DNA of 34,442 bases from UHGV virus genome UHGV-0123328; one strand, 5' to 3'. The notes below the pieces were generated by a model. That model saw only the letters and a list, made by a program, of their open reading frames with translations, was not told the origin of the DNA and searched no databases. The translations under genes and the position numbers were made by a program. This document shows, piece by piece, positions 5,528 through 32,521 of the stretch. Every line of letters begins with the position of its first letter. Position 1 is the stretch's first letter. The stretch comes from a virus.

Positions 5528-5589
5528 ATTGTAAGTACATACTTACGATCATAGAATAGAAAAATAACCAATACACTACGGAGAGTGAA

Positions 5590-5985
5590 ATGACCGTTAA
5601 ACGCGAAAAACTGACAGTTGATGTTTACTATGCCTCTGAAACCGCCGAAGGTAAGAATGTGGCAAAAATCACCGTTGTTACGTACAACACCGAAACTGGT
5701 GCCGAAGTCCAGGCCAGTACGATCGTGCGTAAAGGTGATGCCTCCGGCGGCGAGTACGCGACTCAATACCAGTCTATTTTCGATGCAACTGACCCGCTGC
5801 TGCTGAAAATCGAGAACTACTTCCGCCAGGTTGATGAAGAGGTGTTTGAACCAATGATGAATATGGTTAACACCGTATTCGCCTCCAACCTGAATACCAA
5901 CACTACCTGGATTGGTCAGTACGGCCTGCGCATTACCTCTGGCATTCCTGCCGACACCTTAATCCCTGAAAGCGTATTCGCTTAA
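5590..5985 (+). CDS. Hypothetical protein (131 aa)
   Basis: ORF with GGAG Shine-Dalgarno; preceded by the GTAAGTA-ca-TACTTAC palindrome (5531-5546); hairpin plus T-run downstream (5994-6024). Confidence 0.6.
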   Translation: MTVKREKLTVDVYYASETAEGKNVAKITVVTYNTETGAEVQASTIVRKGDASGGEYATQYQSIFDATDPLLLKIENYFRQVDEEVFEPMMNMVNTVFASNLNTNTTWIGQYGLRITSGIPADTLIPESVFA

Positions 5986-5993
5986 TCCTCTTT

Positions 5994-6024
5994 AAATGGC
6001 GCGCAAACCGCGCCATTTTATTAT
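5994..6024 (+). terminator. Rho-independent terminator
   Basis: AAATGGCGCG-caaac-CGCGCCATTT followed by TATTAT. Confidence 0.65.
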
Positions 6025-6102
6025 GCCCGATAACAATTTGTTTTCTGCCTTATCTGATTTGTGAAAATGATTTCACTGAAGCAACTTAATAAGGAAACCA
6101 TC

Positions 6103-6477
6103 ATGGGACTTGATATCTATATCGAGACACAGCCTAAAAACGATCTGAATAACGAGGCATCCAGAAAGCAGGTTGCTTACTTCCGTAAGTTCAATGCGCT
6201 CGTTGGGTGGATGGAGCGCAACGTAGGTGAAGTCGAAAATTGTGAGCTTTTAGAATTAACGATGAATGACATTTGTTTTCTGAAGGCTCATTTGATGCAC
6301 ATAAACGAAAGTAATTGCGAAGAGTACTTGCCTACCCGGGAAGGTTTTTTCTTCGGCAGTCAGGAGTACGATGAAGGTTACTGGCATGATGTGGGGCAGT
6401 TGAAAGAGCTTGTGGAAGATCTGATTAAGAACCACGACTTTCACAATAACAGACTGACCTTCTGCGCCTGGTGGTAA
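6103..6477 (+). CDS. Hypothetical protein (124 aa from ATG 6103; ORF track starts at GTG 6061, alternative ATG 6067)
   Basis: Strong TAAGGAAACC Shine-Dalgarno before ATG 6103; AACA-att-TGTTT palindrome at 6031-6043 upstream. Confidence 0.55.
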   Translation: MGLDIYIETQPKNDLNNEASRKQVAYFRKFNALVGWMERNVGEVENCELLELTMNDICFLKAHLMHINESNCEEYLPTREGFFFGSQEYDEGYWHDVGQLKELVEDLIKNHDFHNNRLTFCAWW

Positions 6478-6479
6478 AT

Positions 6480-6623
6480 ATGGGCGATTTCAAGAAACGC
6501 CTGAAGGAAAGAGCCGAGATGGTCAGAAAGCAAAACGCCTCTTCTGTCATCAGATACGCAAGGCAGTTTAGTCGCAACAACAAATCAGTTGAGGAAAAGA
6601 TCCTTAGCGTAATCGGGCGATAA
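6480..6623 (+). CDS. Possible small basic protein (47 aa), translationally coupled to the preceding gene
   Basis: ATG 6480 lies 2 nt after the upstream stop; Lys/Arg-rich ORF ending immediately before stem-loop 6627-6654. Not in the ORF track because it is under 60 aa. Confidence 0.3.
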   Translation: MGDFKKRLKERAEMVRKQNASSVIRYARQFSRNNKSVEEKILSVIGR

Positions 6624-6626
6624 TTA

Positions 6627-6654
6627 TTAAGACCACCAGCATTGGTGGTCTTAA
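6627..6654 (+). terminator. Stem-loop TTAAGACCACCA-gcat-TGGTGGTCTTAA (putative terminator or RNA processing/stability element)
   Basis: 12-bp perfect stem. A covarying twin occurs at 7098-7125. Confidence 0.5.
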
Positions 6655-6759
6655 ATGACTTTTAATAACCGAAGGTTAGTTTGAAACCTGGCTATCAACT
6701 TCCAGAACCTTTCTTGTGTATTCAGCCTGTATTAACTTCTTTTATGCCTTATCTACACT

Positions 6760-6796
6760 GCGATAATTACACCAACAAGAAAACAACATGTTTACG
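6760..6796 (+). promoter_or_regulatory. Conserved promoter/operator-like module, copy 2 (palindrome AAACA-aca-TGTTT at 6781-6793)
   Basis: GCGATAATTACACCAACAAGAAAACAACATGTTTACG; near-identical to copies at 4623-4660 and 7245-7284. Confidence 0.6.
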
Positions 6797-6812
6797 CAGT
6801 GAGGATATGCTC

Positions 6813-7094
6813 ATGACTGATTTCACCATTACCCCTAAAGCACAAAATGTATTTCTTGAATCATGGCTGGACTTGCCGGAAACAGAACAGCAAGAAATGG
6901 ATCATGTGGATTATGACGAGCAGGTAAGCACGCGATTCTTCCACTTTGAGGGCTGCGTTTACGACATTGCCGACTTCATGCGAGATGACCGCTTCCCTGA
7001 ATGGCACGCCAGTTATCCACTAAACGCCTTCGCCATGCTGATGATCCGTGTGGGTGATTCAGGGGATACCATCGACATCGGTCTGCTCCACTAA
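6813..7094 (+). CDS. Hypothetical small acidic protein (93 aa; ORF track start 6681)
   Basis: GAGGA Shine-Dalgarno 7 nt upstream of ATG 6813; conserved module upstream; stem-loop downstream. Confidence 0.55.
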   Translation: MTDFTITPKAQNVFLESWLDLPETEQQEMDHVDYDEQVSTRFFHFEGCVYDIADFMRDDRFPEWHASYPLNAFAMLMIRVGDSGDTIDIGLLH

Positions 7095-7097
7095 AGA

Positions 7098-7125
7098 TTA
7101 AGGCCACCAATGCTGGTGGCCTTAA
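7098..7125 (+). terminator. Stem-loop TTAAGGCCACCA-atgc-TGGTGGCCTTAA
   Basis: 12-bp perfect stem, compensatory to the 6627-6654 copy (A:T pair replaced by G:C). Confidence 0.5.
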
Positions 7126-7244
7126 ATGACCATCCTGTTTCCCGCAGGCTAAAAACACCAACCTCTTACCTCCAGGCAACCGACAAACCCACCTGTTCCC
7201 GTCCGGCTACCGCAACTTTCCACTTTGACGCCTTATTCGTACAA

Positions 7245-7284
7245 CGATAATTAACGCCAACAAGAAAACAATTTGTTATTTACG
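7245..7284 (+). promoter_or_regulatory. Conserved promoter/operator-like module, copy 3 (palindrome 7266-7278)
   Basis: ACGATAATTAACGCCAACAAGAAAACAATTTGTTATTTACG upstream of ATG 7299. Confidence 0.6.
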
Positions 7285-7298
7285 ATAAGGAATTAATC

Positions 7299-7781: not shown

Positions 7782-7789
7782 CTGAGAAG

Positions 7790-8682: not shown

Positions 8683-9333
8683 TTACGCTTTGAAAGCATC
8701 AGCCAGATAGTTATAGAAATCATTTTTAATAAAGCGATATTGCTGAGTGCCAGCTTTGGCGCTCCCAGCTCCTTTGACTTTTTCAACAAGTCCCAGACGT
8801 TCGCAAAGATTGATAAGCTGGTTGGCTTGAGTGTATCCTGCGTCTAATTTTATTTCGTTGGCTTTTTTCGCTTCATTCATTAAATCGAAAACAGCGCCAT
8901 TTGTGAACGTCTCGATCTCGTCGTTAATCATATCGATTAATGCGAATACACGAGATCCGGACATATCAGCGACGGAATAAACACACTTTCCAGCTTTAAT
9001 GGATTTAACCAGATAAACCAGTTTTTCCAGAGAATAACTGTTAGTCATTGCATCACGGAAAAAAACTTCTGGCGCTTGTTTGCTTGCTTTGATCGCATAG
9101 TAGAAAACAGAGCATAATTTTTCGTCTTCTACAGCGTTTACAACGTTGTTGATGAAGTAAGCAAGTTTAGTGGTCGCAGCTTGCATATTTGCTTTGTCTG
9201 CTTTAGTGTGCGTACCATTTTTATAATGTTCGTTATATGTTTGAGTTGCCAGATCTGCTTTTTCGCGCAGTTCATCGGATACAATGGAAGCAGCTTCAAT
9301 GATGGATTTTTTAGAAATGATAATGTTAGTCAT
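8683..9333 (-). CDS. Hypothetical protein (216 aa), AT-rich moron-like gene
   Basis: Clean ORF of about 40% GC with its own upstream intergenic region (9334-9570); hairpin 8653-8669 immediately downstream. Confidence 0.6.
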   Translation of the reverse strand: MTNIIISKKSIIEAASIVSDELREKADLATQTYNEHYKNGTHTKADKANMQAATTKLAYFINNVVNAVEDEKLCSVFYYAIKASKQAPEVFFRDAMTNSYSLEKLVYLVKSIKAGKCVYSVADMSGSRVFALIDMINDEIETFTNGAVFDLMNEAKKANEIKLDAGYTQANQLINLCERLGLVEKVKGAGSAKAGTQQYRFIKNDFYNYLADAFKA

Positions 9334-9614: not shown

Positions 9615-10136
9615 TTAAAACGGAAGGATTCGTTCAACCCAATCGAAGAAAATAAGAATTTTTCTGCCGTCTTTCAACTTAAGTGTGACTAGGCAGGCAT
9701 CAACGCCATCTGACGTTCCCTCAATTTCGCGGCCGTCTGCCATGTAGACCCTTATAGATTGGCCGTTTTGATAAGCCTTGCGACATATCTTAAAAAAATC
9801 ACGACGTGATGGCTGGTTGTCTACATAGTCAGGGTGTATTGTTAGTCTCCCTTTGAAATCGTAATCAATGCCATCAATTACGCCTGATTCAATTGTGCTA
9901 ATGCGCTCAAGTGGGAGCCTTATACGATTTTCTTTGTCAAATGGAGTTGGACAAAGGTCAACTTTGTTACGAGATGACATGAGACCATAAACGTACATGC
10001 AAAACACTTGGCCGTCTTCGAGAGTGACTCTTACAGGAAATTTAGCCCCCCGCCAGAAGAGCAAGGTGCGTTCAGCATGTTCGTAGTCTCGCGGCCATAC
10101 TTCAGCCGGTATGCCGTAGGTGATGTCTTTAACCAT
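9615..10136 (-). CDS. Hypothetical protein (173 aa) with an internally repeated (R)VxLxDG motif
   Basis: ORF with its own terminator. Motifs VRVTLEDGQ, IRVYMADGR and VTLKLKDGR suggest repeated small beta-rich units. Confidence 0.6.
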   Translation of the reverse strand: MVKDITYGIPAEVWPRDYEHAERTLLFWRGAKFPVRVTLEDGQVFCMYVYGLMSSRNKVDLCPTPFDKENRIRLPLERISTIESGVIDGIDYDFKGRLTIHPDYVDNQPSRRDFFKICRKAYQNGQSIRVYMADGREIEGTSDGVDACLVTLKLKDGRKILIFFDWVERILPF

Positions 10137-13900: not shown

Positions 13901-13982
13901 AAACCTCTTTCCTTAGTGCCTTTTGTATGTTATTTGGCTATTATAATAAGTAAGTGATTACTTAGTGGATTGTAGCAATAAA

Positions 13983-15331: not shown

Positions 15332-15993
15332 GCAAATACATCATCAACGTATCGTTTCAGACACGCGTAAATAAAACCACGCGCACGTTGGAAATCGCTG
15401 AGTCGTTCGGGCTTGGCCTGGACGAAAAAGAGTGGACGCTTTACGACAATCTGGAGCTGGAAGTGAAGCAGGGCGATGTGGTGTACATCACCGGCCAATC
15501 CGGTTCCGGCAAATCCGTTGTGCTGCGCGAGTTGCAACGACAGATGAAGGATGAAGGGCTGTCTGTAGCCTCCATCGATGATTTTACCTTCGATAATGAG
15601 GTTAACGTCATCGATCAGTTGGGCAAAACGACCAGTGATGCGCTTGGGTTGTTATCTATGGCTGGTCTGAACGATGCATATCTGTTTGTTCGCAAGCCTT
15701 CTGAAATGTCAGACGGCCAGAAATATCGTCTCAAGATTGCCAAACTGATTGAGTCAGGCGCTAAAGTATGGGCTGCTGACGAGTTCGGCGCTGTTCTCGA
15801 CCGTGTAACCGCTCAGGTTGTGGCGTCTAACCTCCAGCGTGCCGCTCGAAAGGTTGGTGCGACGGTAATGGTGGCGACGACTCACGAAGACCTGAAGAAC
15901 GCGCTGCGCCCTGATATGCAGATCACCAAGCACTACAAAGAACGCGTGAAGGTGGAATATCACAATGGTAGTCATGATGAGGTCCATTCATGA
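15328..15993 (+). CDS. Minimal ABC-type ATPase (221 aa, nucleotide-binding domain only)
   Basis: Walker A GQSGSGKS, ABC signature-like MSDGQKYRL, Walker B VWAADEF and H-loop ATTHE in canonical order. Start overlaps the upstream stop (ATGA). Confidence 0.7.
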   Translation: MSKYIINVSFQTRVNKTTRTLEIAESFGLGLDEKEWTLYDNLELEVKQGDVVYITGQSGSGKSVVLRELQRQMKDEGLSVASIDDFTFDNEVNVIDQLGKTTSDALGLLSMAGLNDAYLFVRKPSEMSDGQKYRLKIAKLIESGAKVWAADEFGAVLDRVTAQVVASNLQRAARKVGATVMVATTHEDLKNALRPDMQITKHYKERVKVEYHNGSHDEVHS

Positions 15994-16607
15994 CGGACAT
16001 CATCATTAAACGCTACCGCCCTGAAGAGTTTCCGCGTCATCTGGACTTTCTGGAGCGAATGACTGTTACAAAGGGAACTGTAGAGGACTGGCACGCTCTT
16101 AAGTCGCTTCACTACAAAACAGACGGCAAACCTTTCGCGCCAACTTACTATCGCTGCGAACTTGATGACCGTCTGGTGGGCGTCGTGGTTATGGCTTACC
16201 CGAAACTACTGTTGGCACCTCGCCACCGCATGTTTCCTAAGTTGAAACCAACCACTAATACCACCGTGGCTAACCAGTACTGGGGTCGGTACGTGAATAA
16301 CAACTTTGCGGTGATCAGTCGCTCAGTTGTGGATACTCAGTATCGTGGCGTAGGCGTCTCTTATAGAATGATTAACCTGGTTAGCAGGATGCATGACCGG
16401 CCAATCATTGAGATCCAGTCCTCGATGAGCAAATACAATCCCTTCGCCATGAAAGCAGGGTTTAAGTTCATCCGCCCTGAGCGACCGAAGAGCTATGAAA
16501 GTGCACTGCGTGTATTCCAGCGCCATTTCCGTTCCGACCCGGGTGATAACGAGGCGATCGTCAAAGAGTTGTTCGCAATGAGCGAGTCTCGTCGTCGCCG
16601 TGCGTGA
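15990..16607 (+). CDS. GNAT-fold (acetyltransferase-like) protein (205 aa)
   Basis: Motif-A-like VVDTQYRGVGVSYRMINLV and motif-B-like NPFAMKAGFKFI. Start overlaps the upstream stop (ATGA). Confidence 0.5.
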   Translation: MTDIIIKRYRPEEFPRHLDFLERMTVTKGTVEDWHALKSLHYKTDGKPFAPTYYRCELDDRLVGVVVMAYPKLLLAPRHRMFPKLKPTTNTTVANQYWGRYVNNNFAVISRSVVDTQYRGVGVSYRMINLVSRMHDRPIIEIQSSMSKYNPFAMKAGFKFIRPERPKSYESALRVFQRHFRSDPGDNEAIVKELFAMSESRRRRA

Positions 16608-16875
16608 TCTGGTGGCGGACTACCACAAGAACAGTTCCCTGGCAAAAGCTGGGCGGAATCGTGGCACGACGATTCAGGACATTGCCGACAGTCTGGTGGA
16701 CGAGGCCAGCATTGTGAAGCTGCTCAAGGACATTCACAACCTGAGCTTTACGTCTCCGTTGTATGGTGTGTATCGAAACCCTGACTTTGGTCGTCGACTG
16801 CCTGACACGCTGCCACTGCTGGCATTCGACAAACAACCTTTGGATAAACCGTTGGAAATTGCTTTACCGGCATAA
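16600..16875 (+). CDS. Hypothetical small protein (91 aa, GTG start overlapping the upstream gene by 8 nt)
   Basis: ORF continuing the operon; no recognisable motif. Confidence 0.45.
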   Translation: MRDLVADYHKNSSLAKAGRNRGTTIQDIADSLVDEASIVKLLKDIHNLSFTSPLYGVYRNPDFGRRLPDTLPLLAFDKQPLDKPLEIALPA

Positions 16876-17175: not shown

Positions 17176-17230
17176 CCTGCTTCTGTATATATAAATAATA
17201 AGTAACTTATTAAATATATACGGAAGCAGG
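17176..17230. promoter_or_regulatory. Large imperfect palindrome (about 27-bp arms, CCTGCTTC…GGAAGCAGG) centred on AATAAGTAACTTATT
   Basis: Arms CCTGCTTCTGTATATATAAATAATAAGT and ACTTATTAAATATATACGGAAGCAGG. Located between the regulator-like gene and the small terminase gene. Confidence 0.6.
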
Positions 17231-17347
17231 CTTAGTAAGACATGCCCAGACCTAATTAAACACCCCAGAAAACAAGTTGGTTAGCAGATGCAGTAAACAA
17301 GTTGTTTTAGAGCGCATGGACGCGCTCTGTGTGTTTTAGAGGGATCT

Positions 17348-17980
17348 ATGACGGTCGAAAAAGACGAGGTAAAAACTCGCCTGACACCAGCGGAGTGGGC
17401 CGAAGCTGAAGCCAAATGGACGTCAGGCGAATATACACTCTCAAAGCTGGAGGAAGAGTACGGCATTCGTCGTGAAACACTCTCCAGACATTTCAAAAAG
17501 CGAGGATTAGAGAAAGGCGCGGACTCTGTTGGGAAGATGGTTCGTGAGTCTCTTAAATCTGACGCAGAGCTTCGCGCTAAAGCCCGTGCGGAAAAGATAG
17601 AAGAACGTCGTACACGTTATGACGGCTGGGCGTATGCGTTGGGGCAGATGGTGATGGTCGAAGTCACTACGGCCAAACGTGAGGGTAAGCCTTTAGGGGC
17701 GATTGAGGATTCTCTCAAGAGCTTACAGAGAGCCAGTAATACCCTTGCAAAATGCTTTGAAGTTTCGTCCAAAGCATTGGGCATGGATCATGCGGAAAAT
17801 GACGAGGAAGAAATTCCGAACCTGGTATTTGGTGAGCTTACGCCTTCCCAGGTGGCGAAATTACGTCAGGAAGACGACGAGCCTGAAATCATCGATGACG
17901 AATTGCTTGAGACGTTGGAAGAAGAAGCTCTAAGCGAATTTGATGCGACAGATGATGGAAGTGAAGGGGAGGACGAATAA
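17348..17980 (+). CDS. Terminase small subunit (210 aa), putative
   Basis: Immediately upstream of and overlapping the large terminase (TAATG). N-terminal helix-turn-helix-like segment (YTLSKLEEEYGIRRETLSRHFKKRG) and strongly acidic C-terminus. Confidence 0.6.
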   Translation: MTVEKDEVKTRLTPAEWAEAEAKWTSGEYTLSKLEEEYGIRRETLSRHFKKRGLEKGADSVGKMVRESLKSDAELRAKARAEKIEERRTRYDGWAYALGQMVMVEVTTAKREGKPLGAIEDSLKSLQRASNTLAKCFEVSSKALGMDHAENDEEEIPNLVFGELTPSQVAKLRQEDDEPEIIDDELLETLEEEALSEFDATDDGSEGEDE

Positions 17981-19236
17981 TGGCAATCCCGTCCTCGCTC
18001 AGTCTTGTGCAACTGCATTCTGGACAGATGAAAGTCTTCCAGTCTCCGCATCGATTTAAAGTTGTTTGTGCTGGTCGACGCTGGGGAAAATCCCGGTTGT
18101 CGATCTCCACTATTATTCGTGCGGCGGCAAAGGAAAAAAAGCAAAGAGTCTGGTATGTCGCTCCTACTTACCAGATGGCTCGCCAGATTTTGTGGGACGA
18201 TCTACAGGAAGTTCTGCCTCGTAAGTGGGTTAGGAAAAAGAACGACACCACGATGACAATCGTGTTGAAGAACGGTTCGGAGATCGCCCTCAAAGGTGCT
18301 GATAAGCCTGACACTCTGCGCGGCGTAGCGTTGCATTTTGTAGTGCTTGATGAATTTCAGGATATGAAGGCTGACACCTGGTACAAGGTGTTACGACCTA
18401 CTCTTTCATCGACACGCGGCGGTGCACTGATCATTGGTACGCCAAAAGGCTTCTCGGAATTTCACAAACTGTGGACTATAGGCCAGAACGTAGAGCTGCA
18501 AAGAAAGGGACAGTGGAAGAGCTGGCAGTTTGTAACTGCCGATTCTCCGTTTGTACCTACGGCGGAAATTGAAGCTGCTAAGAACGATATGGACCCGAAA
18601 TCGTTCGCTCAGGAGTACCTGGCGAGCTTTGAGAACATGTCAGGGCGCGTTTACTACCCGTTCGATCGTAACGTGCATGTAAAACCGCTTCAGTTCAACC
18701 CTCGGTTGCCTATATGGGTAGGGCAGGACTTCAACATTGACCCGATGTCTTCAGTAATTTTGCAACCTCAGCCAAATGGTGAGCTATGGGCAATTGATGA
18801 ATTGGTGCTCTTTTCCTCTAACACGGCAGAGGTTTGTGATGAGCTTGAGAGACGCTTCTGGCGCTGGAAATCACAGATAACGGTATTTCCAGATCCGGCA
18901 GGTGCTTATCGCCAACATGCTCGCGGGGAGTCTGACGTCGACATATTCAAAGAGAAGGGATTCTTACGTGTCGATTATTCGAAAAAGCACCCGCCAATTG
19001 CGGATCGTGTTAATGCTGTTAACCGAATGCTGATGACCGCATCTGGAGATATCCGGCTGTATATCGATCCGAAGTGCAAGCATTTGATTGATTCACTGGA
19101 AAAAGTCATCTACAAGCCTGGAACACGAGATATGGATAAGACAGGTGGCATTGAGCATAGTGCAGACGCATTGGGCTATCCAGTACATCGTAGGTATCCA
19201 GTCAAAAACCGTGTTATTCTTGGTGGTTCTCGATAG
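17980..19236 (+). CDS. Terminase large subunit (418 aa)
   Basis: Walker A VCAGRRWGKS and Walker B HFVVLDEF in the N-terminal ATPase; Asp-rich RNase H-like C-terminal nuclease region; position before the portal gene. Confidence 0.85.
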   Translation: MAIPSSLSLVQLHSGQMKVFQSPHRFKVVCAGRRWGKSRLSISTIIRAAAKEKKQRVWYVAPTYQMARQILWDDLQEVLPRKWVRKKNDTTMTIVLKNGSEIALKGADKPDTLRGVALHFVVLDEFQDMKADTWYKVLRPTLSSTRGGALIIGTPKGFSEFHKLWTIGQNVELQRKGQWKSWQFVTADSPFVPTAEIEAAKNDMDPKSFAQEYLASFENMSGRVYYPFDRNVHVKPLQFNPRLPIWVGQDFNIDPMSSVILQPQPNGELWAIDELVLFSSNTAEVCDELERRFWRWKSQITVFPDPAGAYRQHARGESDVDIFKEKGFLRVDYSKKHPPIADRVNAVNRMLMTASGDIRLYIDPKCKHLIDSLEKVIYKPGTRDMDKTGGIEHSADALGYPVHRRYPVKNRVILGGSR

Positions 19237-19262
19237 GTAAGTAATTATCTAAGGTTATTCAA

Positions 19263-20837
19263 ATGGAATTGAACGACAAACAAATTAAGGATCTGGTGGC
19301 GCGACGCCACCCGGAATACGAAAAGAAAAAAGAACATTGGGACTTCCTCGCCAGCACTTACGCTGGCGGGCGTGGTTGGTTTACAGACAATATCTTTCGT
19401 TACTTTAAAGAGGGAGATCAGGAGTTTAAGGAGCGAGTTGAACGTGCTTATCGCTTCAACCACACTCGTGAGGTGGTAAACCTCATCAACAAATATCTCT
19501 TTAAAGAAGACATTCATAGAAATATCGAAGAGGCACCAGAGCAGATCCGCAATTTCTGGAAACGTGCGACTCGCCAGAATGCCTCTATTGACTCATTTAT
19601 GGCCGCTATTGATTTGCAGTCGTCTATTTACGGTCGCATATGGGTTGTTGTCGATAGCACGATGAGTGGTGATGTTGAGTCAGTAGCTGACGAGAAAAAG
19701 AAAGATGCTCGCGCCTACGCCTACTGGATTTCACCTCAGCAAATGCTGGATGTGGCATGGGACGACGACGGGAATATGTTGTGGGCGTTAATTGTGGAAG
19801 TCGCTCGTGATGACGCAGATCCTTTTACTTCTACAGGTCAGGAATACCAACGTTATCGTCTGTGGACACAAAACGAGTGGTATCTGTTCCGCGAGGAAGT
19901 GAAGAAGGGCGCTGGTGGAGCAGGTCGCCGTCAGGCAAAAGTTATTTTAGAGGATAGCGGTGAGCATAATCTCGGCGTAGTTCCTGTGTTTCCTGTTGAT
20001 TGTATTGGAGAAAGTGAATCACCGTATTTCAGCCCATCGTTGATCGATGATATCGCTTATCTTGATCGTGCGGTTGCAAACTATCTGTCAAACCTTGATG
20101 CCATTATTCAGGATCAGACATTTAGCCAGTTGGCTATACCGGTACAGTCGCTTTTACCTGGTGATGAAAACCACACTAAAGTGCTTGAAATGGGCACAAA
20201 GCGAGTCTTCACCTACGATTCTGAAGGTGGAAACCAGCCGTTTTATCTGTCACCAGACCCGAAACAAGCTCAGATGATCATCACTACGATTAAGACGGTG
20301 ATTAACGAAATCTACCATTCAGTTGGTGTAGCTGGTGAGCGAACGAAGCAGGACAACGCACAGGGAATCGATAATTCATCTGGTGCCGCAAAAATGTATG
20401 ACTTCCAGCGTGTAAATAGCTTGCTTGTCACAAAAGCAGAGCGTCTGGAAAGGGCTGAACGCCAAATCATGCTACTGGTTGCGAAATGGATGGGGGCAGA
20501 TCTGGACGAAGACCACTCTTTAATTGCGTATCCAGAAAGTTTCGATATTCGTGGCCTTACTGATGAATTTTCTGTTGCCGAGAAACTGTCATTACTTCAG
20601 GCACCGGACTCTGTACGTCGTCACCAGATGGAAATGCTTATTGAGAAGATTTTCCCGAACATTACTGAGGCGATGAAAAAGGAATTTGATAAAGATCTCT
20701 TGAATTTTCCTCCAAAAAATGATCTAAATACCCTTGAAAATAAGTCAGTACTTACTTATGATCGTGGTACGGCCCAAGAAAGCGGGCAAGATCAACCCCG
20801 AGGGAATGGGGACTCATCTACTCAAGAGAACGAGTGA
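19263..20837 (+). CDS. Portal protein (524 aa)
   Basis: Size and position directly after the large terminase; acidic C-terminal tail. Confidence 0.75.
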   Translation: MELNDKQIKDLVARRHPEYEKKKEHWDFLASTYAGGRGWFTDNIFRYFKEGDQEFKERVERAYRFNHTREVVNLINKYLFKEDIHRNIEEAPEQIRNFWKRATRQNASIDSFMAAIDLQSSIYGRIWVVVDSTMSGDVESVADEKKKDARAYAYWISPQQMLDVAWDDDGNMLWALIVEVARDDADPFTSTGQEYQRYRLWTQNEWYLFREEVKKGAGGAGRRQAKVILEDSGEHNLGVVPVFPVDCIGESESPYFSPSLIDDIAYLDRAVANYLSNLDAIIQDQTFSQLAIPVQSLLPGDENHTKVLEMGTKRVFTYDSEGGNQPFYLSPDPKQAQMIITTIKTVINEIYHSVGVAGERTKQDNAQGIDNSSGAAKMYDFQRVNSLLVTKAERLERAERQIMLLVAKWMGADLDEDHSLIAYPESFDIRGLTDEFSVAEKLSLLQAPDSVRRHQMEMLIEKIFPNITEAMKKEFDKDLLNFPPKNDLNTLENKSVLTYDRGTAQESGQDQPRGNGDSSTQENE

Positions 20838-20858
20838 TAAGTAACAAAAGGAATTTTT

Positions 20859-21746
20859 ATGAATCTGTGGCAAATGCTTTTGGCCCGTCGTGGTCTGATG
20901 GATGTCGCTGAAGCGCATGAGCGTGGAGGCGCTGGCGGTGTAGCTGCTGATAATGAGCAGAGTACACAAGATCCTGACAAACAGGGTGAACAAAAAGAGC
21001 AGCCGAAGGGCGATGACGAATACGCTGGCATGACTCAGGAAGAGTTACTGGCCGAACTTCGTAAAACCAAGAAAGCTGGTGCTGAACTGCTGAAGGAGAA
21101 CATGAAGCGCAAAGAGAAAGAGCGCACATTGGCCGATCAGCTTGCTCAGTACGGTGATATCGATCCGGCTCGTGCTCGCCAGCTTTTAGAAGCTGAACAG
21201 GCCGCAGAAAACGCACGTCGTGAGGCGGAGCAAGCTGAACTGGAGCGTCGTGGTGAGTTCGATGCTGTTAAAAAACAGATGATCGAAGCACACCAGGCAG
21301 AGCTGGCACAGCGTGACGAACGTTATGCAGCACTGGAAAGTGAAAACGCATCACTGAAATCTCAATTAGTCGAGATGACCGTGGGCGCTTCCTTCAGTAA
21401 CTCTCTCTTCCTACGTGACAAAGTTCTGATGACCCCGGCAAAAGCCCGCGTGATCTACGGTTCTCATTTTGAAGTGGGTGAAGACGGTAGCGTAGTGGGT
21501 TATGACAAACCGGCAGGTCACAAAGAACGAGCTGTTCTGGTTGACGGTGAAGGTAAGCCGTTGCCGTTTGAATCCGCGATTGAACGCATTGTGCGGGCAG
21601 ATCCGGAAGCTGACGCATTGATGCGTAGCGAAGCCAAGCAGGGTGTAGGCTCACATTCCAAATCGACCTACACAATATCCCAACCGAAGAACAAGTCGAC
21701 TATGGATAAGTTGGCCTCCGGTCTGGGGAAAATTGGACTTAAGTAA
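20859..21746 (+). CDS. Head scaffolding protein (295 aa), putative
   Basis: Highly charged, coiled-coil-like sequence (AELLKENMKRKEKERT…AEQAAENARREAEQAELERR…) between the portal and capsid genes. Confidence 0.65.
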   Translation: MNLWQMLLARRGLMDVAEAHERGGAGGVAADNEQSTQDPDKQGEQKEQPKGDDEYAGMTQEELLAELRKTKKAGAELLKENMKRKEKERTLADQLAQYGDIDPARARQLLEAEQAAENARREAEQAELERRGEFDAVKKQMIEAHQAELAQRDERYAALESENASLKSQLVEMTVGASFSNSLFLRDKVLMTPAKARVIYGSHFEVGEDGSVVGYDKPAGHKERAVLVDGEGKPLPFESAIERIVRADPEADALMRSEAKQGVGSHSKSTYTISQPKNKSTMDKLASGLGKIGLK

Positions 21747-21771
21747 CATCTAAATCAAAGGGAATTGATAG

Positions 21772-22647
21772 ATGCCATTACTGCGTGAAGAAGCTGAAAA
21801 GCTGTCTAACAACGAACTTGAACAGGGTGTGATCGAAACTATCATCGATCGCGATGACCTGTTTGCCATCCTGCCTTTTATGAAAATTAATTCAAAGGCA
21901 TATCTGTACAACCGTGAAAAAACGCTGAGTGAAGCTACCTTCATCGACGTTAACGACACCATCCCTGAAGGTGCAGCAACCTTCGAAGAATGCGTTGCGA
22001 AACTGCGTATTCTGGCTGGTGACGTAGACGTTGATAAATTCCTGGCAACCACTATGGCCGACACCAATAACCAGTTGGCTATTCAGGTTCGTCAGAAAGT
22101 TAAAGGTCTGGCTCGTGCGTTCCGTCGCAACCTGATTTTGGGTGACTCCAGCTCCAACACCAAAGCGTTCGACGGCATTCCACGCCTGATGCACGCAGAT
22201 CAGAAGATCGATATCGCCGGTGCATCTATGACTTTCTCTATGTTCGACGAACTGGTCGATGCGGTGAAAGATCTTGGTGCTGACTGCATCATGATGCGTT
22301 CAGAGCACCTGCGTGCTTACCGTGCGCTGCTGCGTACAGTAAACGTAGGTCCGTCTGAAATCATGATGGAGAACTTCGGTCGTCCGATGCTGTGTCATAA
22401 CGGCGTTCCGTTCATCATCAACGACTTCATCCCGACCGATTCTGGCAAAGCAAGCATCTACTGCCTGCATCTGTCAGAAGAGAACGGCGTTACTGGTCTG
22501 TATGGCGGCGACAACGCAGGTATCGTTGTTGAAAACATTGGTACTGTACAGAACAAAGACGCAGTACGTACCCGTGTGAAGTGGTACTGCTCTCTGGCGA
22601 ATAAGCACGATAAGGCTATCGCTGCACTGACCAATGTAAAAATTTAA
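21772..22647 (+). CDS. Major capsid protein (291 aa), putative
   Basis: Position after the scaffold gene; followed by a strong terminator at 22680-22709, typical of high-expression capsid genes. Confidence 0.7.
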   Translation: MPLLREEAEKLSNNELEQGVIETIIDRDDLFAILPFMKINSKAYLYNREKTLSEATFIDVNDTIPEGAATFEECVAKLRILAGDVDVDKFLATTMADTNNQLAIQVRQKVKGLARAFRRNLILGDSSSNTKAFDGIPRLMHADQKIDIAGASMTFSMFDELVDAVKDLGADCIMMRSEHLRAYRALLRTVNVGPSEIMMENFGRPMLCHNGVPFIINDFIPTDSGKASIYCLHLSEENGVTGLYGGDNAGIVVENIGTVQNKDAVRTRVKWYCSLANKHDKAIAALTNVKI

Positions 22648-22679
22648 TCAGTGAAGTAGATAAGTAATTATCTATGTTA

Positions 22680-22709
22680 AAGGGTGGGCTATACGCCCAC
22701 CCTTTTTGT
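22680..22709 (+). terminator. Rho-independent terminator after the capsid gene
   Basis: AAGGGTGGGC-tatac-GCCCACCCTT followed by TTTTGT. Confidence 0.75.
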
Positions 22710-22720
22710 AGGAGCGAGAA

Positions 22721-23380
22721 ATGCCAGAACAAAAGATGAAGATTACGGAAGAGGCATTTTCGGATTTTACGGGGCATATGTGCCGTGCCGGATTTACCAA
22801 TTCTATCTCCGATGAACCTTTAACAGAGCGACAACAAAGTCAGCTATCTGCTTGTTTGCAGGCGGTTCCCTTCTCCCAATCCGTAAACATAACCCCGGCT
22901 TCACCGTCAGTTTTGGTTGGGAAAACTGTTCAACTTAGTGCAGGTATTACTATGGGTAAGAGTGCCAGTTCATTCACCTGGAAGTCAGCCAATGATCAAA
23001 TTGCAACCGTCAACGGCACTGGATTAGTAACTGGCGTAGCACCAGGCAAAGTGAAAATTACCGCAACTGATCAGGAAACCCAGCTTTCCGCGTCAGTGGA
23101 AGTCACCGTAAATCCGGTAGCCGTTCAATCCGTAACGGTAACGCCAGACTCAACCTCTGTTGAGAAAGGGAAATCAGTCAGTCTGAAAGCGAATGTTCAG
23201 CCGTCAAATGCGACGAATAAGGCAGTTACCTGGTCTTCCAAAAATAAAGACAAGGCAACGGTAGACCAGAGCGGGAACGTTACTGGTGTAGAAGTTGGCA
23301 CTGCGACGATTGAGATCGTTTCCCAAGATGGTAGCCACAAAGCGACAGCAACTGTAGAAGTTACTGCCGCACAGGAATAA
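22721..23380 (+). CDS. Ig-like (Big_2-type) domain protein (219 aa), probable capsid decoration or accessory protein
   Basis: Two tandem segments with the bacterial Ig-like pattern (…VTGVAPGKVKITATDQ… and …VTGVEVGTATIEIVSQDG…). Confidence 0.65.
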   Translation: MPEQKMKITEEAFSDFTGHMCRAGFTNSISDEPLTERQQSQLSACLQAVPFSQSVNITPASPSVLVGKTVQLSAGITMGKSASSFTWKSANDQIATVNGTGLVTGVAPGKVKITATDQETQLSASVEVTVNPVAVQSVTVTPDSTSVEKGKSVSLKANVQPSNATNKAVTWSSKNKDKATVDQSGNVTGVEVGTATIEIVSQDGSHKATATVEVTAAQE

Positions 23381-23424
23381 CCGATATTGGGCGGCTTTCG
23401 CCGCCTAAGTGGAGAGAAAGCGTT

Positions 23425-23859
23425 ATGAAACCAGCAAAAATTGTTTTATTAGAACCGCAATTTTCCGGTTATTCGGGAATGTTGTGCGGCGTTCAGTTCG
23501 AGAACGGGGTGTCCGTAGCGGAGTTGCCTTTTATCGATCAGCAAAGGATTTGTGCCTCAATGCGAGCATCAACAGTCGAGGGCAAAAATGTTTCTCCGTC
23601 TGCCGCATACAGTGATCGTGGCGAGTTGACCGCAGACCTGATTACCGAGCCAGCAGCACCTGACATTGTGCCAATGAAACGTGGGACACCAGATGAACCG
23701 GCCAAACAGATCCAGACTTTCACACGAGAAGAGTTGGAGTCAATTGCAGACAATGAAGGCATTGCCGGTCTACGTGTGATTGGTAATCAGGTTGGTGTCA
23801 AAGCGAAAGGAATTGTCGAGATGATTGAAGGCATCCTGAAAGCACAAGGCGGTGAGTAA
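23425..23859 (+). CDS. Hypothetical head-tail region protein (144 aa)
   Basis: ORF in the head-to-tail interval; function assigned by position only. Confidence 0.55.
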   Translation: MKPAKIVLLEPQFSGYSGMLCGVQFENGVSVAELPFIDQQRICASMRASTVEGKNVSPSAAYSDRGELTADLITEPAAPDIVPMKRGTPDEPAKQIQTFTREELESIADNEGIAGLRVIGNQVGVKAKGIVEMIEGILKAQGGE

Positions 23860-24692
23860 TGGCGCAGATCGACTCGTATCGTAGCGGTGAAGCTGTTTCC
23901 CTTTCATTTGCCTTCAACGTGCTGGATATCGAATCTGCTACCTACACAGTAAAGGACAGCACCGGGGCTATTCTCGTTGATGGCGAGCCGCTAGAAATTA
24001 CCAGCGGTCAAATGTCGATTCCGGTTGTCGTGTCGGCTGAATATAACCAGCTCTCTGAGAAAGAACGCGATCTGCGGTACGTCATTGTGAAGGCTGTTGC
24101 ATCGGGTCTGACGCATGAAGAGCGGCAAATGTATGTTCTGCTGAATAGTTTTGAACTGTCGATACCAGAACAGTCGTTTGCAACTGTCGCTGATGCTCAA
24201 ATGCAGGCGATCGATATGCTGAATGGGGACACTTTGCTGTCGGATGGTGAAGGCTTAATGCGCAAGCGTCTCATTGAGGCTACCAGACGAATTAAAACTT
24301 TACCGTTCTCAATCCGCAAAATTCTACGTATCGACTTTGACCGATACGATCGCCCTCAAAATATGCTGAATGTGTATGACATTCCGTGGGGAGCAGATGG
24401 AGCGTACCGGCATGATTTAGTCGATTGGGAAAAGATGACGCAGGAGAAGTTTGAAGAGTTCCCTGACTACTTCAAAGAAGCGTTGATGCTTGCCGTTGTC
24501 AACGAAGCGTGTGAGATCGCAAATGGCAATGATGTAGCCGCAGCACGAGAGGATGGCATTTTGTCAGAGTCCATCGGTGAAACAACCAACATGTACCGTA
24601 CCGGTAAAGCTGCAAACGTGCATGTGGCTCGTAGTACCTGGCGCTTGCTGGTCAGTTACATCAACAACCGTATGATTGTTCGCCGTGCGTAA
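23859..24692 (+). CDS. Hypothetical head-tail region protein (277 aa)
   Basis: Start overlaps the upstream stop (TAATG); function assigned by position only. Confidence 0.6.
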   Translation: MAQIDSYRSGEAVSLSFAFNVLDIESATYTVKDSTGAILVDGEPLEITSGQMSIPVVVSAEYNQLSEKERDLRYVIVKAVASGLTHEERQMYVLLNSFELSIPEQSFATVADAQMQAIDMLNGDTLLSDGEGLMRKRLIEATRRIKTLPFSIRKILRIDFDRYDRPQNMLNVYDIPWGADGAYRHDLVDWEKMTQEKFEEFPDYFKEALMLAVVNEACEIANGNDVAAAREDGILSESIGETTNMYRTGKAANVHVARSTWRLLVSYINNRMIVRRA

Positions 24693-25581: not shown

Positions 25582-25965
25582 GTGTTTATTGAAGCGTTTG
25601 CAAGTTTGATGCAGAAGGCAAAGATTGGCACGGTCGGGACTGACATTTTCTGTCACTACTTGCCTGCCAATGTGAAATCTGGCGTCCTGCTTATTAACCC
25701 AAATACCGGCATCAGCATCGATCATGAGCTACAGGGCTTTTATCACGAATCATTCACAATCATTGTGCGTGGTTCGTCAATTACTACGACGGTTGAGAAA
25801 GCCCATAAAATCATTGAGATGTTTCCAGTAGAGGAAACGGAATCTGGTGGTGTTTATTTTCGACTTGTACGACCGATGGCGATGCCAATCATTTATCCCA
25901 AAAATGATGGGGCATTAATAGAAGCAGGCATTCCTGTTGAATTTGCTGGCTATTTATTGAATTAA
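25582..25965 (+). CDS. Hypothetical tail-completion-region protein (127 aa from GTG 25582; alternative ATG 25609)
   Basis: GAGAGG Shine-Dalgarno upstream of GTG; the ORF track entry 25459 overlaps the previous gene. Confidence 0.5.
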   Translation: MFIEAFASLMQKAKIGTVGTDIFCHYLPANVKSGVLLINPNTGISIDHELQGFYHESFTIIVRGSSITTTVEKAHKIIEMFPVEETESGGVYFRLVRPMAMPIIYPKNDGALIEAGIPVEFAGYLLN

Positions 25966-26039
25966 CTCAATTAGTAAGTATATACTTACTATTAGCGCAA
26001 TGAATGCGTAGAATTAACGGAAAAAGGAGTTTTCCATCA

Positions 26040-30500: not shown

Positions 30501-32094
30501 CCAGAAGGCTCTGGACAAAGCCGATCAGCTTATGGGGCAAATGGGTGAAAGCTCTAAGGCTACGGTATCGTTTGATCAGTCTCTTCGCGATACAACGAAA
30601 TCGCTGACAGATTTGGCTAATGCGGTTCCTAACGAGTTCATCACTCAAGAGATGATCGACAAGGCGAAAAAACGTCTTGAAGACCTCAAAAATGCGACAC
30701 CTGAATATCGCGAGATGTTTAATCGCCGCAATGTTGAGCAGATGATCTCCACTTGGGCACCGAAGGCGGATTCCATTATTAGTGCTGGCTATACGCCGTC
30801 TCGCGAAGAGAAAGTTGCTGATTTCGAAGACACCTACAACCGCAATCTCAAAGCGTTGATAGAACTTCGTGATAAGGCGTCTGATCCTAAAGTTGTGGCG
30901 CTTTATACAAAGAAAATCAATCAACTGATTGCTGCTGGCAATACCGCGCTTATTAAAGAGACGGGGACTGCGACGCAGAAGTTGGCACTGGAATACGAAA
31001 ACCTGGCAGAGCAGATCGAAAGCACCTGGACTGATTTGTTTAGTGGCTTAACTGATGTCCTGACTGATTTCGTTATTAACGGGAAGATGAGCTTCTCCAG
31101 CCTATCTCAGTCCATTTTGAAAGATATCACCAATATGGTCGTGAAGTCGCAGATCACGCTGCCTCTAATGAACATGTTGGGGATGGGAACCACCGCAGCT
31201 GGTAGTTCACAGAGTGGTAATTTGCTCACCGGGGTTGCTTCCGCAGTTGCCAATCAAGGTGTGCGCATAAGCAACACTGTTAATGGCGACAAGTCGGTAG
31301 GAGAAGCCACGAAGGAGACGTCCAGTTCGGTAACTGGATTGGGGCAAACGACACAGCAGACCACCAGCGCAATTGGCACAGCAACAAATGCGATTGGTAG
31401 CTGGGTATCAGGGCTATTTGATAGCACCGAAGCCAAAGATGCTGAGACAAAAGCAGTGAAGGATTCCATCTTCTCGATGCAGAACCTCAGCTCTGTTACC
31501 GGCGCTCTGTCTGCCGCGTTTGCAATGCTTGGAGCTAATGCTTCCGGCTCTGGTAATAAGTGGTTGAATTTCGGCGCGACAGTTGCATCTGGTTTGGTTT
31601 CAGTATGGGCTGGTGGTGGATTCGATGGATTGATGTCCGGTTCTTCTGGCTCAACTTCCGGGTTCAACAATCTGACCAGTTCTGCTGCCGATGGCACGAA
31701 TGGCATTCCTGCAATTCCGAAGTTTGCAAATGGTGGCATATTCGGAAAAGACGGCGTGATCCCGCTCCGGGCATACCAGAAAGGCGGTATCGCCAACTCA
31801 CCTCAATTGGCGTTGTTTGGGGAAGGCGATATGAATGAGGCGTATGTTCCATTGCCTGATGGTCGAACAATCCCTGTAACGCTCAGTACCGATGGTATGA
31901 GTGGAGGAGGAAATGTTCTTTCTCCGGTATCAATTGAGATCAACGTCCATAGTGACGGTAGCACAACTGAATCCGGCGATACAGAAAGCATATGGAACAA
32001 TGCCGCTCAACGGATGAAAGCAATCGCGCTTGAGACTATCGCTCAAGAGAAACGCCCTGGCGGATCACTCAACCCAAACACTCAACGTAACTAA
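27517..32094 (+). CDS. Tail tape measure protein (about 1525 aa from ATG 27517; ORF track starts at TTG 27496)
   Basis: Very long ORF with coiled-coil-rich segments and Gly/Ala-rich hydrophobic stretches, between the G/GT and M/L/K/I genes. Confidence 0.85.
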   Translation: MSQNVEFILSLEDKQFTASIDRAGKLLTRFGEQVTKPAQKIQTFERSLGSVARIIGVLESKLDSTADKLQDVAAGFELASDATRKMRGNITSLNSGLKALIERVDTTTSSVDKLTASLRKVQSELNDFSDWATYASKSASRFGTEVKEASASVSGMNTRLNTTTKRLSNWGVTTSQAAEGLKKVREQMDEVIGRQQLISKPVRVRTSGSGDGGSGRRSGASGHSGKSNEGGMFSGLRGNIFLLGEIGDAARTVTDIMFGWQKPIVEAAAEMERMRVMLRGLNKEKSNPGQAAADDMKYIVDMAQNAPFAMQALTDSFVKFRSAGLDPTDGSLKALVDSVARFGGDSELLKRAAVAVQQMSGKGVVSMEELRQQLGEAVPNAMQAMADAAGITMGELTKAVASGTVEAKQALSLMFVGLRAENENAAKDMMQTYTGALAQLQTSFTLFADRVGQAGYLDSLSKGMKELASIMNSAEGISFANSLGSGLTTAIDGLRQLAQWLAKNQELVINLGKVVAAMVAFKLMRAGIMGVVGAGSQMVSTFATMATAIQTPFNLGATAVTRFNRAARMGLAPIPSLIFAIRGAITGLKGAFAGLTAFIAANPIGFVFTAAMTAVAGLITYMTMLRSETSKVVDEIRKIPEAMTAAKRAQMAEYKARLEQQITQKEQELKSGEKVVYGPGMAGTTVKINHDERKRIENELNELRKKRDETNETIARGDLAVAKRLAKETAESQIEKILEENRDFAATFVKARQEALEKIQKIKDDGSLSDDEKNKLLAPLRETVNKSYLEPAQKLVDSLSSRKNATEKQIATLNDQLEKAKKEGNTEQIQKLQGSIRGYQEHLEVVAQELTQAEFKRDNAAKSGNGLVSINGDVLGLGTTDKAAQKALAQYMRNQMDSATYQRTLPDGTPMMDFEGKPIIGPKQLKTQLNLQKASSASSLEKMSDEERAAAIAALTKAREQDAAAAEKAAQRSANASQRAAKKEQAAQQKLAAGYQKALDKADQLMGQMGESSKATVSFDQSLRDTTKSLTDLANAVPNEFITQEMIDKAKKRLEDLKNATPEYREMFNRRNVEQMISTWAPKADSIISAGYTPSREEKVADFEDTYNRNLKALIELRDKASDPKVVALYTKKINQLIAAGNTALIKETGTATQKLALEYENLAEQIESTWTDLFSGLTDVLTDFVINGKMSFSSLSQSILKDITNMVVKSQITLPLMNMLGMGTTAAGSSQSGNLLTGVASAVANQGVRISNTVNGDKSVGEATKETSSSVTGLGQTTQQTTSAIGTATNAIGSWVSGLFDSTEAKDAETKAVKDSIFSMQNLSSVTGALSAAFAMLGANASGSGNKWLNFGATVASGLVSVWAGGGFDGLMSGSSGSTSGFNNLTSSAADGTNGIPAIPKFANGGIFGKDGVIPLRAYQKGGIANSPQLALFGEGDMNEAYVPLPDGRTIPVTLSTDGMSGGGNVLSPVSIEINVHSDGSTTESGDTESIWNNAAQRMKAIALETIAQEKRPGGSLNPNTQRN

Positions 32095-32136
32095 CTATCG
32101 ACTGCCCCGACCGGGGCAGTCTCACAAGGATGTGAG

Positions 32137-32472
32137 ATGGAAAGACAAACGTTTAATTGGTATCCAGATTACGAATCTGAAAAGAGCGTAAAACCGAATG
32201 TAACGGTACTTAATTTTGGTGATGACTACGAGCAGCGACAGGCTCAAGGTCTTAATCGTATTAAAGAAGAATGGTCGTTAACCTTTACCAGATCATACAA
32301 CGAAATTAATGCAATCGATGACTTCCTGACTGAGCGATCAGGCGTTGAATCGTTCTATTGGGTTAATCCAAGAGGCAAGCAGATTGTAGTTGTATGTGAC
32401 AGTCATACGGTCAAGCGATATCAGGGGTACTGTGTCTTAACTGCTACATTCAGACAAGTATTTGAGGCTTAA
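32137..32472 (+). CDS. Minor tail protein (lambda gpM-like, 111 aa)
   Basis: Size and position after the tape measure gene. Confidence 0.65.
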   Translation: MERQTFNWYPDYESEKSVKPNVTVLNFGDDYEQRQAQGLNRIKEEWSLTFTRSYNEINAIDDFLTERSGVESFYWVNPRGKQIVVVCDSHTVKRYQGYCVLTATFRQVFEA

Positions 32473-32521
32473 GTATCTGGATAAGTAAGTACTAATTTAC
32501 TATCATTGTGGCGCTGACAGG

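Follow-up and report, generated by a model that had tools for sequence, protein, structure and literature searches.

A TA-phased dyad repeated in the intergenic spacers of SSU5-like phage-plasmids, a candidate dispersed operator

The window and its repeated dyad

The sequence analyzed here is the virus genome UHGV-0123328, a stretch of 34,442 nt that we refer to as the window, and our subject is a TAAGTA-containing inverted repeat that recurs in the spacers between its genes. Positions 3107-34434 are about 98.6% identical to the E. coli plasmid p88COLEC-2 (NZ_CP070908.1), with 99.4% identity over the 20-kb structural segment used as the first query, and the structural genes share 99.3% identity with the phage-plasmid Cyrano. 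Salmonella phage SSU5 and Klebsiella phage-plasmids are about 81 and 79.5% identical to the window, respectively. Judged by this similarity, the window belongs to an SSU5-like E. coli phage-plasmid. Its gene order starts with metG and small genes without an assigned role, continues through a leftward block that holds a FljA-family regulator (9615-10136), then a helicase gene and genes for two ParB-N-domain proteins, and ends with terminase, portal, capsid and lambda-like tail genes.

The initial annotation had described seven TAAGTA elements between 5531 and 32500, and all seven were recovered exactly at those coordinates, as was the 14-mer TAAGTAATTATCTA common to the portal and capsid copies (19238-19251 and 22661-22674). 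The intergenic-versus-coding comparison that it had proposed was run and bore out the enrichment: the 5.2 kb of intergenic DNA contain 15 copies of the hexamer TAAGTA/TACTTA, and the 29.3 kb of coding DNA contain 9. Plain AT-richness does not account for this, since Markov models of the intergenic DNA predict three to five copies as against the 15 seen (2.7-4.7 ± ~2 hexamers expected, with none of 500 simulations reaching 15). The hexamer frequency in coding DNA equals the Markov expectation, which rules out selection against the hexamer within genes; the pattern is therefore an intergenic excess and not an avoidance in genes. When up to two mismatches to TAAGTANNTACTTA were allowed, 12 matches at eight window loci were obtained, compared to 0.78 ± 0.84 in shuffled sequences (0 of 100 reached 12). 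Not listed before were a strong copy within the portal gene (20741-20758) and two half-sites, at 20838 and 8235.

For genome-wide counts, whole p88COLEC-2 (111 kb) and SSU5 (103 kb) were assembled with their annotation. The results showed that the motif is not confined to 5531-32500 but recurs over the whole genome of about 105-110 kb. The hexamer was found 43 times in intergenic DNA (plus three edge cases) versus 24 times in coding DNA of p88COLEC-2, and 41 versus 18 times in SSU5, while sequences matching TAAGTANNTACTTA at 10 or more of 12 positions numbered 34 intergenic versus 5 coding (p88COLEC-2) and 35 versus 6 (SSU5), a density excess of 30- to 65-fold. About 35-40% of spacers of at least 40 nt carry the motif, with the sites at a median of about 13 nt past the upstream stop codon and 15-100 nt ahead of the next start. 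Thus, of the proposed placement at module boundaries, the intergenic location stands, whereas the link to structural genes alone does not, as genes for replication, recombination and nucleotide metabolism are preceded by sites as frequently as structural genes are. In an unbiased count of perfect 5+5 dyads, TAAGT-N4-ACTTA ranked second among intergenic dyads, behind AAACA-N3-TGTTT.

A single 18-24-bp dyad of TA-phased tetranucleotides, (TARG)1-3...(CYTA)1-3, underlies the TAAGTA elements; its idealized form is GATAGGTAAGTACTTACCTATC, and about 30 intergenic copies are spread all round the SSU5-like phage-plasmids. Alignment of the sites on TARGTA placed a TA every 4 bp over five units, TA(A/G)G TA(A)(G/T) TA(C)(T) TA(C/T)(C/T) TA, and the gap from GTAAG to CTTAC was exactly 2 bp (five cases) or 6 bp (three cases), always in intergenic DNA. 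The apparently variable spacers are accounted for by this phased array and do not denote different elements. At 5531-5546, where the Klebsiella version had seemed 4 bp shorter, a four-way alignment was gapless and revealed substitutions only, TACATACTTACG and TACTTACCTACG both being (TACN)3; a 4-bp indel between orthologs is thereby excluded, and the register shift at this one orthologous site examined is due to substitutions within the phased array.

The individual window sites were compared with predictions of sigma-70-like promoters. The palindrome GTAAGTAcaTACTTAC at 5531-5546 (+ strand; feature 5529-5557) lies downstream of an intrinsic terminator and 44 nt upstream of a 131-aa gene, within TTGTAA-17-TAGAAT (9.9 bits sense, 5.2 antisense), and TGTATTGTAAGT together with a TAnnAT -10 is kept at constant spacing, without gaps, in SSU5, Klebsiella pJN2-26 and pCAVP366-109. 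In the divergent intergenic region between the helicase and ParB-like genes, the palindrome TAAGTAAGTGATTACTTA (13947-13964, no strand assigned) is located just downstream of a weak + strand -10 (TATTAT, 13939-13944) and also in the spacer of a weak - strand promoter, TCCACT-18-TATAAT, with orthologs in SSU5 (99799), Klebsiella (L009, 15947) and pCAVP366-109. The site between the terminase gene terL and the portal gene (TAGGTAAGTAATTATCTA, 19234-19251, + strand) occupies most of a 26-nt spacer, the first TAG of the motif being the TerL stop codon; the promoter scan returned no good match here. The copy inside the 3′ end of the portal gene (TAAGTCAGTACTTACTTA, 20741-20758, + strand; feature 20734-20762), about 90 nt upstream of a DUF6651 gene in scaffold position, falls in the spacer of TTGAAA-17-TATGAT, whose hexamers match the consensus at 10 of 12 positions and which is the best sigma-70-like match of the region (11.5 bits). 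Its counterpart in SSU5 is at 3545, and the architecture resembles that of SSU5 55689-55717 (TTGAAA-17-TATCAT). Right after the portal stop codon, a half-site TAAGTAA (TGATAAGTAA, 20838-20844, + strand) forms a weak member that is kept in SSU5 (3642) and Klebsiella (23358).

Nine nucleotides past the capsid stop codon, TAGATAAGTAATTATCTA (22657-22674, + strand) has only a weak promoter match and lies 7 nt upstream of an intrinsic-terminator-like hairpin (22682-22698). Upstream of the Ig-like/major tail gene, a perfect 20-bp palindrome, TAGTAAGTATATACTTACTA (25972-25991, + strand; feature 25957-25991), has at its center the -10 of TTGAAT-18-TATACT (25957-25986, 9.8 bits); the same combination of promoter and palindrome is present at SSU5 9054-9083, and the palindrome is absent from the major-tail spacer of pCAVP366-109. 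The array TAAGTAtctggaTAAGTAAGTActaatttac (32470-32506, + strand), upstream of an L-like gene, overlaps TGGATA-17-TATCAT (32478-32506, 8.0 bits) and has orthologs in SSU5 (15590) and Klebsiella (34789); it is followed, before the L-like gene, by a hairpin at 32510-32532. The two hairpins that follow the motif (22682 and 32510) begin at about the predicted transcript start, and both terminator-scan hits adjoin the motif without coinciding with it, the motif stems themselves being AT-rich.

Conservation and the Acinetobacter variant

Across E. coli, Salmonella and two Klebsiella lineages, orthologous spacers share the motif within diverged flanking sequences. At the TerL-portal site, 15 of 18 positions are invariant in four relatives, whereas the next 12-18 nt scarcely align. 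Four relatives retain the dyad of the capsid site, where two symmetric positions have changed in a paired manner (G-C to A-T at one; A-T, G.T and G-C at the other). In Klebsiella pJN2-26 the motif again occupies orthologous spacers, with 23 intergenic or edge versus 8 coding occurrences in 45 kb, and the divergent Klebsiella lineage (about 70% identity; pCAVP366-109, NZ_CP125183) has it as well, NZ_CP125183 containing 14 matches where 0.57 were expected. The exact 18-mer TAGGTAAGTACTTACCTA gave 31 hits among 2.9 million IMG/VR viral contigs, all of them similar to SSU5/p88COLEC-2 by blastn at 71-98% identity; 30 of the 31 aligned over at least 46% of their length, and one over only 12-14%.

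A distant syntenic relative, the Acinetobacter baumannii plasmid NZ_CP035046 (L045, 1-33712), has in common the order of genes for DnaE, an AAA ATPase, an HTH (helix-turn-helix) regulator, integrase, ligase, primase and DnaB. No TAAGTA was found in its intergenic DNA. Instead, dyads of the type TCAGTCAGTACTGACT are located directly after stop codons and in the control region of the regulator, and TCAG-N6-CTGA occurs seven times in intergenic and twice in coding DNA. The change from TAAG to TCAG in one arm is mirrored by a change from CTTA to CTGA in the other, and the exact 16-mer TCAGTCAGTACTGACT is present in 8-9 copies on single IMG/VR contigs of about 107-110 kb. The Acinetobacter dyads stand at equivalent places, and the architecture is therefore old and its letters lineage-specific.

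Promoter association and candidate regulators

Over two genomes, the best sigma-70-like score that a simple -35/-10 weight matrix gave within 45 nt of the motif was 6.59 bits on the sense and 4.98 bits on the antisense strand (p = 3e-4), compared to 3.70 and 3.74 bits for motif-less spacers matched for stop-codon distance, which the motif spacers exceeded significantly (p = 1e-6). Of 45 motif spacers, 12 scored at least 8 bits, compared to 4 of the 60 controls and 1.9% of random windows. At four of the eight window sites, sigma-70 hexamers stand 16-18 bp apart on the gene strand and score 8.0-11.5 bits, the others scoring 1-6.7 bits. The dyad overlies the -35, the spacer, the -10 or the +1, differing from promoter to promoter; its center lies mostly at about -28 to -2, within a full range of about -48 to +2 relative to the predicted starts; measured against the first base of the predicted -10 hexamer, the range extends from 36 nt upstream to 14 nt downstream. 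Such a varying register is typical of repressor operators and hence suits an operator better than a fixed promoter element. The earlier suggestion of phage-specific promoters therefore holds as regards promoter overlap and loses ground as regards a fixed element.

The Cyrano study lists CYRAN_45, a 128-aa HTH protein adjoining the integrase, as the putative master repressor (PMC9928086), and it is expressed in the Cyrano lysogen (PMC9928086 Table 1). None of the genes that the same table places at least 5-fold above background in the lysogen lies downstream of a window site, and this silence of the window-site genes occurs despite near-consensus promoters. The gene for the putative repressor, which is of the XRE type (WP_001282576.1), is next to the integrase gene and outside the window (p88COLEC-2 18298-18684). 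Its promoter, TTTACA-16-TAATAT, leads into GGTAAGCACTTACC, which is a motif copy at about +1; no other part of the spacer is as well conserved between E. coli, Yersinia pestis pMT and Klebsiella as this combination. In the Acinetobacter relative, the equivalent regulator region contains the dyad variant of that plasmid. Homologs of the putative repressor were found in 865 plasmids, whose hosts are those of the family and, in addition, Acinetobacter. Of the four TAAGTA-bearing lineages compared, three share the predicted recognition helix (K/E)NANN(L/I)SLIKSG, among them one with just 38% identity overall; the helix reads KNPNILSLIKKG in the other Klebsiella lineage and KRPNVLSMIKSG in Acinetobacter. 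As a separate observation, NZ_CP125183, which belongs to the lineage with the divergent repressor, contains a distinct palindrome with 12-bp arms, ACCCATAAATAA-atgc-TTATTTATGGGT (L110, 19385-19425), in the spacer upstream of the repressor gene and directly upstream of an oppositely oriented neighbor; going by this location, it could be a different operator belonging to the divergent repressor itself.

The FljA-family protein encoded by the window (9615-10136, - strand) was considered as a reader of the sites because it matches PF03614 ('repressor of phase-1 flagellin') over its full length (E = 2e-79). Among 50,697 phage records the family was present only in SSU5-like elements, and the gene was found in 831 plasmids, mostly of about 100-115 kb, with versions of 36-41% identity in some Klebsiella relatives. 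This candidate is disfavored: a drop of the protein to 38% identity leaves the motif unaltered, the Acinetobacter relatives have analogous dyads while a protein search of the plasmid collection returned no FljA homolog in any Acinetobacter plasmid, the E. coli fliC leader has no convincing copy of the motif, and the gene is absent from those expressed in the Cyrano lysogen. We therefore regard the FljA-like protein as a weaker reader candidate than the putative repressor. The HicB-type HTH protein (SSU5_054/CYRAN_50) was set aside as a regulator, being an antitoxin, and the two ParB-N-domain proteins of the window are candidate readers only. A LexA SOS box (CTGT-N8-ACAG) was also looked for as TACTGTATATNNATACAGTA with up to three mismatches, and no match was obtained.

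Proposed dispersed operators and other explanations

Among the functions that the initial annotation had offered, a regulator binding site is the best supported, given the sigma-70-like promoters on the sense strand, the overlap of the dyad with core promoter elements and the copy at the repressor promoter. The most likely explanation in our view, though its odds are slightly below even, is that the TAAGTA dyads are dispersed operators of one element-encoded regulator and that they overlap or adjoin the host-type (sigma-70) promoters at the head of many lytic transcription units. While the element persists as a plasmid prophage, this regulator would sit on these sites and block RNA polymerase at the -35, spacer, -10 or +1, so that about 30 promoters would be held silent, and upon induction all of them would open together. 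The most likely binder would be the XRE-type putative repressor, CYRAN_45.

Several points weigh against this explanation. About half of the window sites, namely those at the TerL-portal junction, the portal stop codon and the capsid gene, have no convincing promoter; the promoter scores draw in part on the bases of the motif itself; and several sites sit between a stop codon and a terminator-like hairpin. A gap of either 2 or 6 bp between GTAAG and CTTAC would be awkward for a rigid dimer. The link to the repressor is a correlation that involves two contrasting lineages, and as these lineages differ also in host, the sites might instead be bound by a host factor or by some other conserved protein of the phage. 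In addition, SSU5 (NC_018843) is without the block corresponding to p88COLEC-2 17834-24024, which carries the putative repressor, the integrase, a toxin, AbiGi and two of the three tRNAs; this agrees with SSU5 having been isolated as a plaque former, yet SSU5 has about 27 undecayed sites. Finally, protein binding, the identity of the binder and a repressive effect, that is every functional step, are what we infer rather than observe.

The persistence of undecayed sites in SSU5 would be readily understood if the dyad were a positive promoter element, at which an activator or sigma-like factor of the phage, made after induction, guides the host RNA polymerase to middle and late promoters, in the manner of Lpa at the late promoters of P1. 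The motif does stand at sense promoters with an often poor -35 (TTGTAA, TGGATA, TAGATA), it persists despite high divergence of both the repressor and the FljA-like protein, the accessory region has few copies and uses an AACAAnTTGTT motif instead, and a site at the +1 of the repressor promoter could serve to stop repressor synthesis in lytic growth. However, activators normally need a fixed geometry and the dyad center ranges over some 50 positions, from about -48 to +2; some sites cover the -10 or the +1, where binding usually represses; several promoters already match sigma-70 at 10 of 12 positions and hence need no activator; and no sigma factor or known late activator is annotated. On balance, we consider an activator unlikely. 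The host itself might also provide the reader in the form of a DNA-binding or nucleoid protein, the enterobacterial and Acinetobacter versions of the motif differing as the hosts differ. In favor of this, host genus predicts the type of motif better than the divergence of the repressor or of the FljA-like protein does, both Klebsiella lineages having TAAGTA and Acinetobacter TCAG, and SSU5 keeps its sites in the absence of the repressor. Yet the restriction of the exact 18-mer to SSU5-like contigs means that other enterobacterial phages do not use it, and we know of no host regulator with a matching consensus, the RcsAB box and the NarL heptamer seeming only near misses, so that we regard a host reader as very improbable.

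A role at the RNA level, as the initial annotation had envisaged with its RNA processing sites, would make the dyads short hairpins in polycistronic transcripts that act in processing, stability or translational control, perhaps bound by the FljA-family protein. Salmonella FljA binds the fliC mRNA leader. The full-length PF03614 protein of the window, the placement of the sites shortly after stop codons and ahead of the next start, two SSU5 copies that abut start codons (CCTATCATG) and the paired changes that preserve the dyad at the capsid site are all consistent with such a role. On the other hand, the 41 co-directional sites fold equally well as sense and as antisense RNA (-4.55 versus -4.59 kcal/mol, Wilcoxon p = 0.83; sense favored at 17 sites and antisense at 23) and thus show no G.U bias, the hairpins of the window sites have little stability (-4.4 to -9.6 kcal/mol, z -1 to -3.6), and the covariance models of Rfam 15, at the gathering score, found no match in the whole window. 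Moreover, one site lies in a divergent promoter region and another upstream of the repressor gene, and the observations that disfavor the FljA-like protein as a reader apply here too. RNA processing was accordingly not sustained, and an RNA-level function in general seems improbable to us. Least probable in our view is that the dyads have no regulatory role, being a by-product of stop-codon-rich, AT-rich spacers or marking boundaries of module exchange in the manner of the promoter/stem-loop (PeSL) cassettes of T4-type phages. The tetranucleotide repeats of both lineage versions bring a stop codon at 4-nt intervals, all three frames are closed by TAAGTAAGTAA and TGACTGACTGA, and many copies include or directly follow the upstream stop codon. 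But the excess is 3- to 5-fold over Markov models of intergenic DNA, only 35-40% of the longer spacers have the motif, the left arm of the Acinetobacter version contains no stops on the sense strand, and the dyad symmetry, the conservation at orthologous positions against diverged flanks and the association with sense promoters would all be left unexplained. Breakpoints of homology between SSU5 and p88COLEC-2 were not in excess at the sites either, as 2 of 20 intergenic breakpoints fell within 40 nt of a site where 2.4 were expected in this one genome pair, which argues against a role as mosaic boundaries.

Extending the operator explanation, the dyads and their reader might form a co-evolving, lineage-specific 'address code' for a supercluster of phage-plasmids of about 100 kb that includes Yersinia pestis pMT1, and to which we take Salmonella Typhi pHCM2 to belong. 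A small regulator would then read a phased array of flexible register and not a palindrome of fixed spacing, its approximately 30 sites would silence nearly every lytic promoter, late genes included, and the TAAG to TCAG change in Acinetobacter would be a specificity change traceable in both protein and sites. As one joint claim, this is unlikely.

The logic of dispersed operators is already known. The motif system is comparable to the C1 operators of P1 in that many operators of one regulator lie round a plasmid prophage of about 100 kb, many of them cover promoters in varying register and the targets include the gene of the repressor, as the motif copy at the putative repressor promoter suggests here. 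It appears unrelated to them in sequence: the P1 C1 operator is an asymmetric 17-mer, ATTGCTCTAATAAATTT, and its consensus had no match in the window with up to three mismatches, whereas the sites described here are dyads of phased tetranucleotides and the candidate repressor is of the XRE type. Also unlike in P1, which controls its late region indirectly via Lpa, sites are present in the late structural region. KorB/OB of RK2 and the dispersed SopB sites of N15 offer another parallel, with a dozen-odd identical palindromes at varying promoter distance that provide global co-regulation; the 13-bp palindrome read by KorB, a member of the ParB family, contains GC, while the sites here number about 30 and are AT-rich. 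The late promoters of P1, on which Lpa acts, combine a -10 with an inverted repeat near -22, and a similar arrangement of a -10 with an inverted repeat in the spacer region and no good -35 is seen at 5529-5557, where the dyad center is near -24. In P1 the position of the element is fixed, whereas here the register varies by tens of bases, and no Lpa homolog is annotated. Like PeSL cassettes and repetitive extragenic palindromic (REP) elements, the dyads are short repeated intergenic palindromes near gene ends; unlike them, they show no association with mosaic junctions, their stems are weak and AT-rich where REP stems are GC-rich, and they are conserved at orthologous positions and not scattered by recent spread. 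Searches of the literature for the motif, for SSU5 promoters, for palindromes and for RNA-seq found no description of it and no transcript-start data for SSU5-like elements.

Two further palindromes are present in the window. The element at 17197-17211, which the initial annotation had counted with the TAAGTA copies, proved to be the AT-rich center, AATAAGTaACTTATT, of a near-perfect palindrome of about 55 bp, CCTGCTTCTGTATATA...TATATACGGAAGCAGG (17177-17231, no strand assigned), upstream of the gene in small-terminase position, and belongs to a separate family with three copies per genome in p88COLEC-2 and SSU5. It folds at -30.8 kcal/mol (z -8.5), compared to -4 to -10 for the TAAGTA sites, and the GenBank records of SSU5 and Cyrano begin inside it (window 17213/17214); it could be a packaging, partition or replication site. 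The palindrome AACAANTTGTT occurs six times in the intergenic DNA of the window (1357-1367, 4645-4655, 5129-5139, 6032-6042, 7267-7277 and 17296-17306) where 0.08 copies were expected, and 11-14 times per genome, either immediately ahead of a ribosome-binding site (GAAAACAAnTTGTTTAAGGAG..ATG) or within a promoter-like CCTTAAACAAnTTGTTTTCTGCC...TGnGATAAT. The copies cluster in the accessory region, which has few TAAGTA sites, and may represent a second operator class or a translational operator.

Other features of the window were observed in passing. A methionyl-tRNA synthetase gene is carried on the phage-plasmid (the window segments noted were 1-1271 and 1425-3106), and the adjoining segment, with an open reading frame (ORF) of 409 aa (1864-3093) that had no Pfam match, stands in place of a DUF1380/IS1 segment of p88COLEC-2. 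Positions 3230-3990 form an ORF-free, A+C-rich stretch of about 750 nt (GC skew -0.32, AT skew +0.31) that is kept in p88COLEC-2, where it has no annotation; tandem repeats were looked for in it and none were found. The overlapping ORFs at 15990-16607 and 16600-16875 correspond to a single 296-aa coding sequence in p88COLEC-2, and the window copy (15990-16875) appears, from this comparison, to be frameshifted.

SSU5-like phage-plasmids are common in E. coli, Klebsiella, Enterobacter, Salmonella and Yersinia, with 831-865 plasmid records carrying the FljA-like and repressor genes, and some of them carry resistance genes, while the maintenance of lysogeny and the timing of the lytic program in these elements are essentially unstudied. 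A motif at about 30 sites provides a candidate map of transcription units, a testable regulon and a shortlist of regulators, and with the Acinetobacter variant a swap of specificity exists in nature for use in experiments. Should the sites be operators, a single protein would govern most of the lytic program, which would give a handle for inducing or curing these elements. The motif is the first concrete handle on gene regulation in this widespread and clinically relevant family of phage-plasmids.

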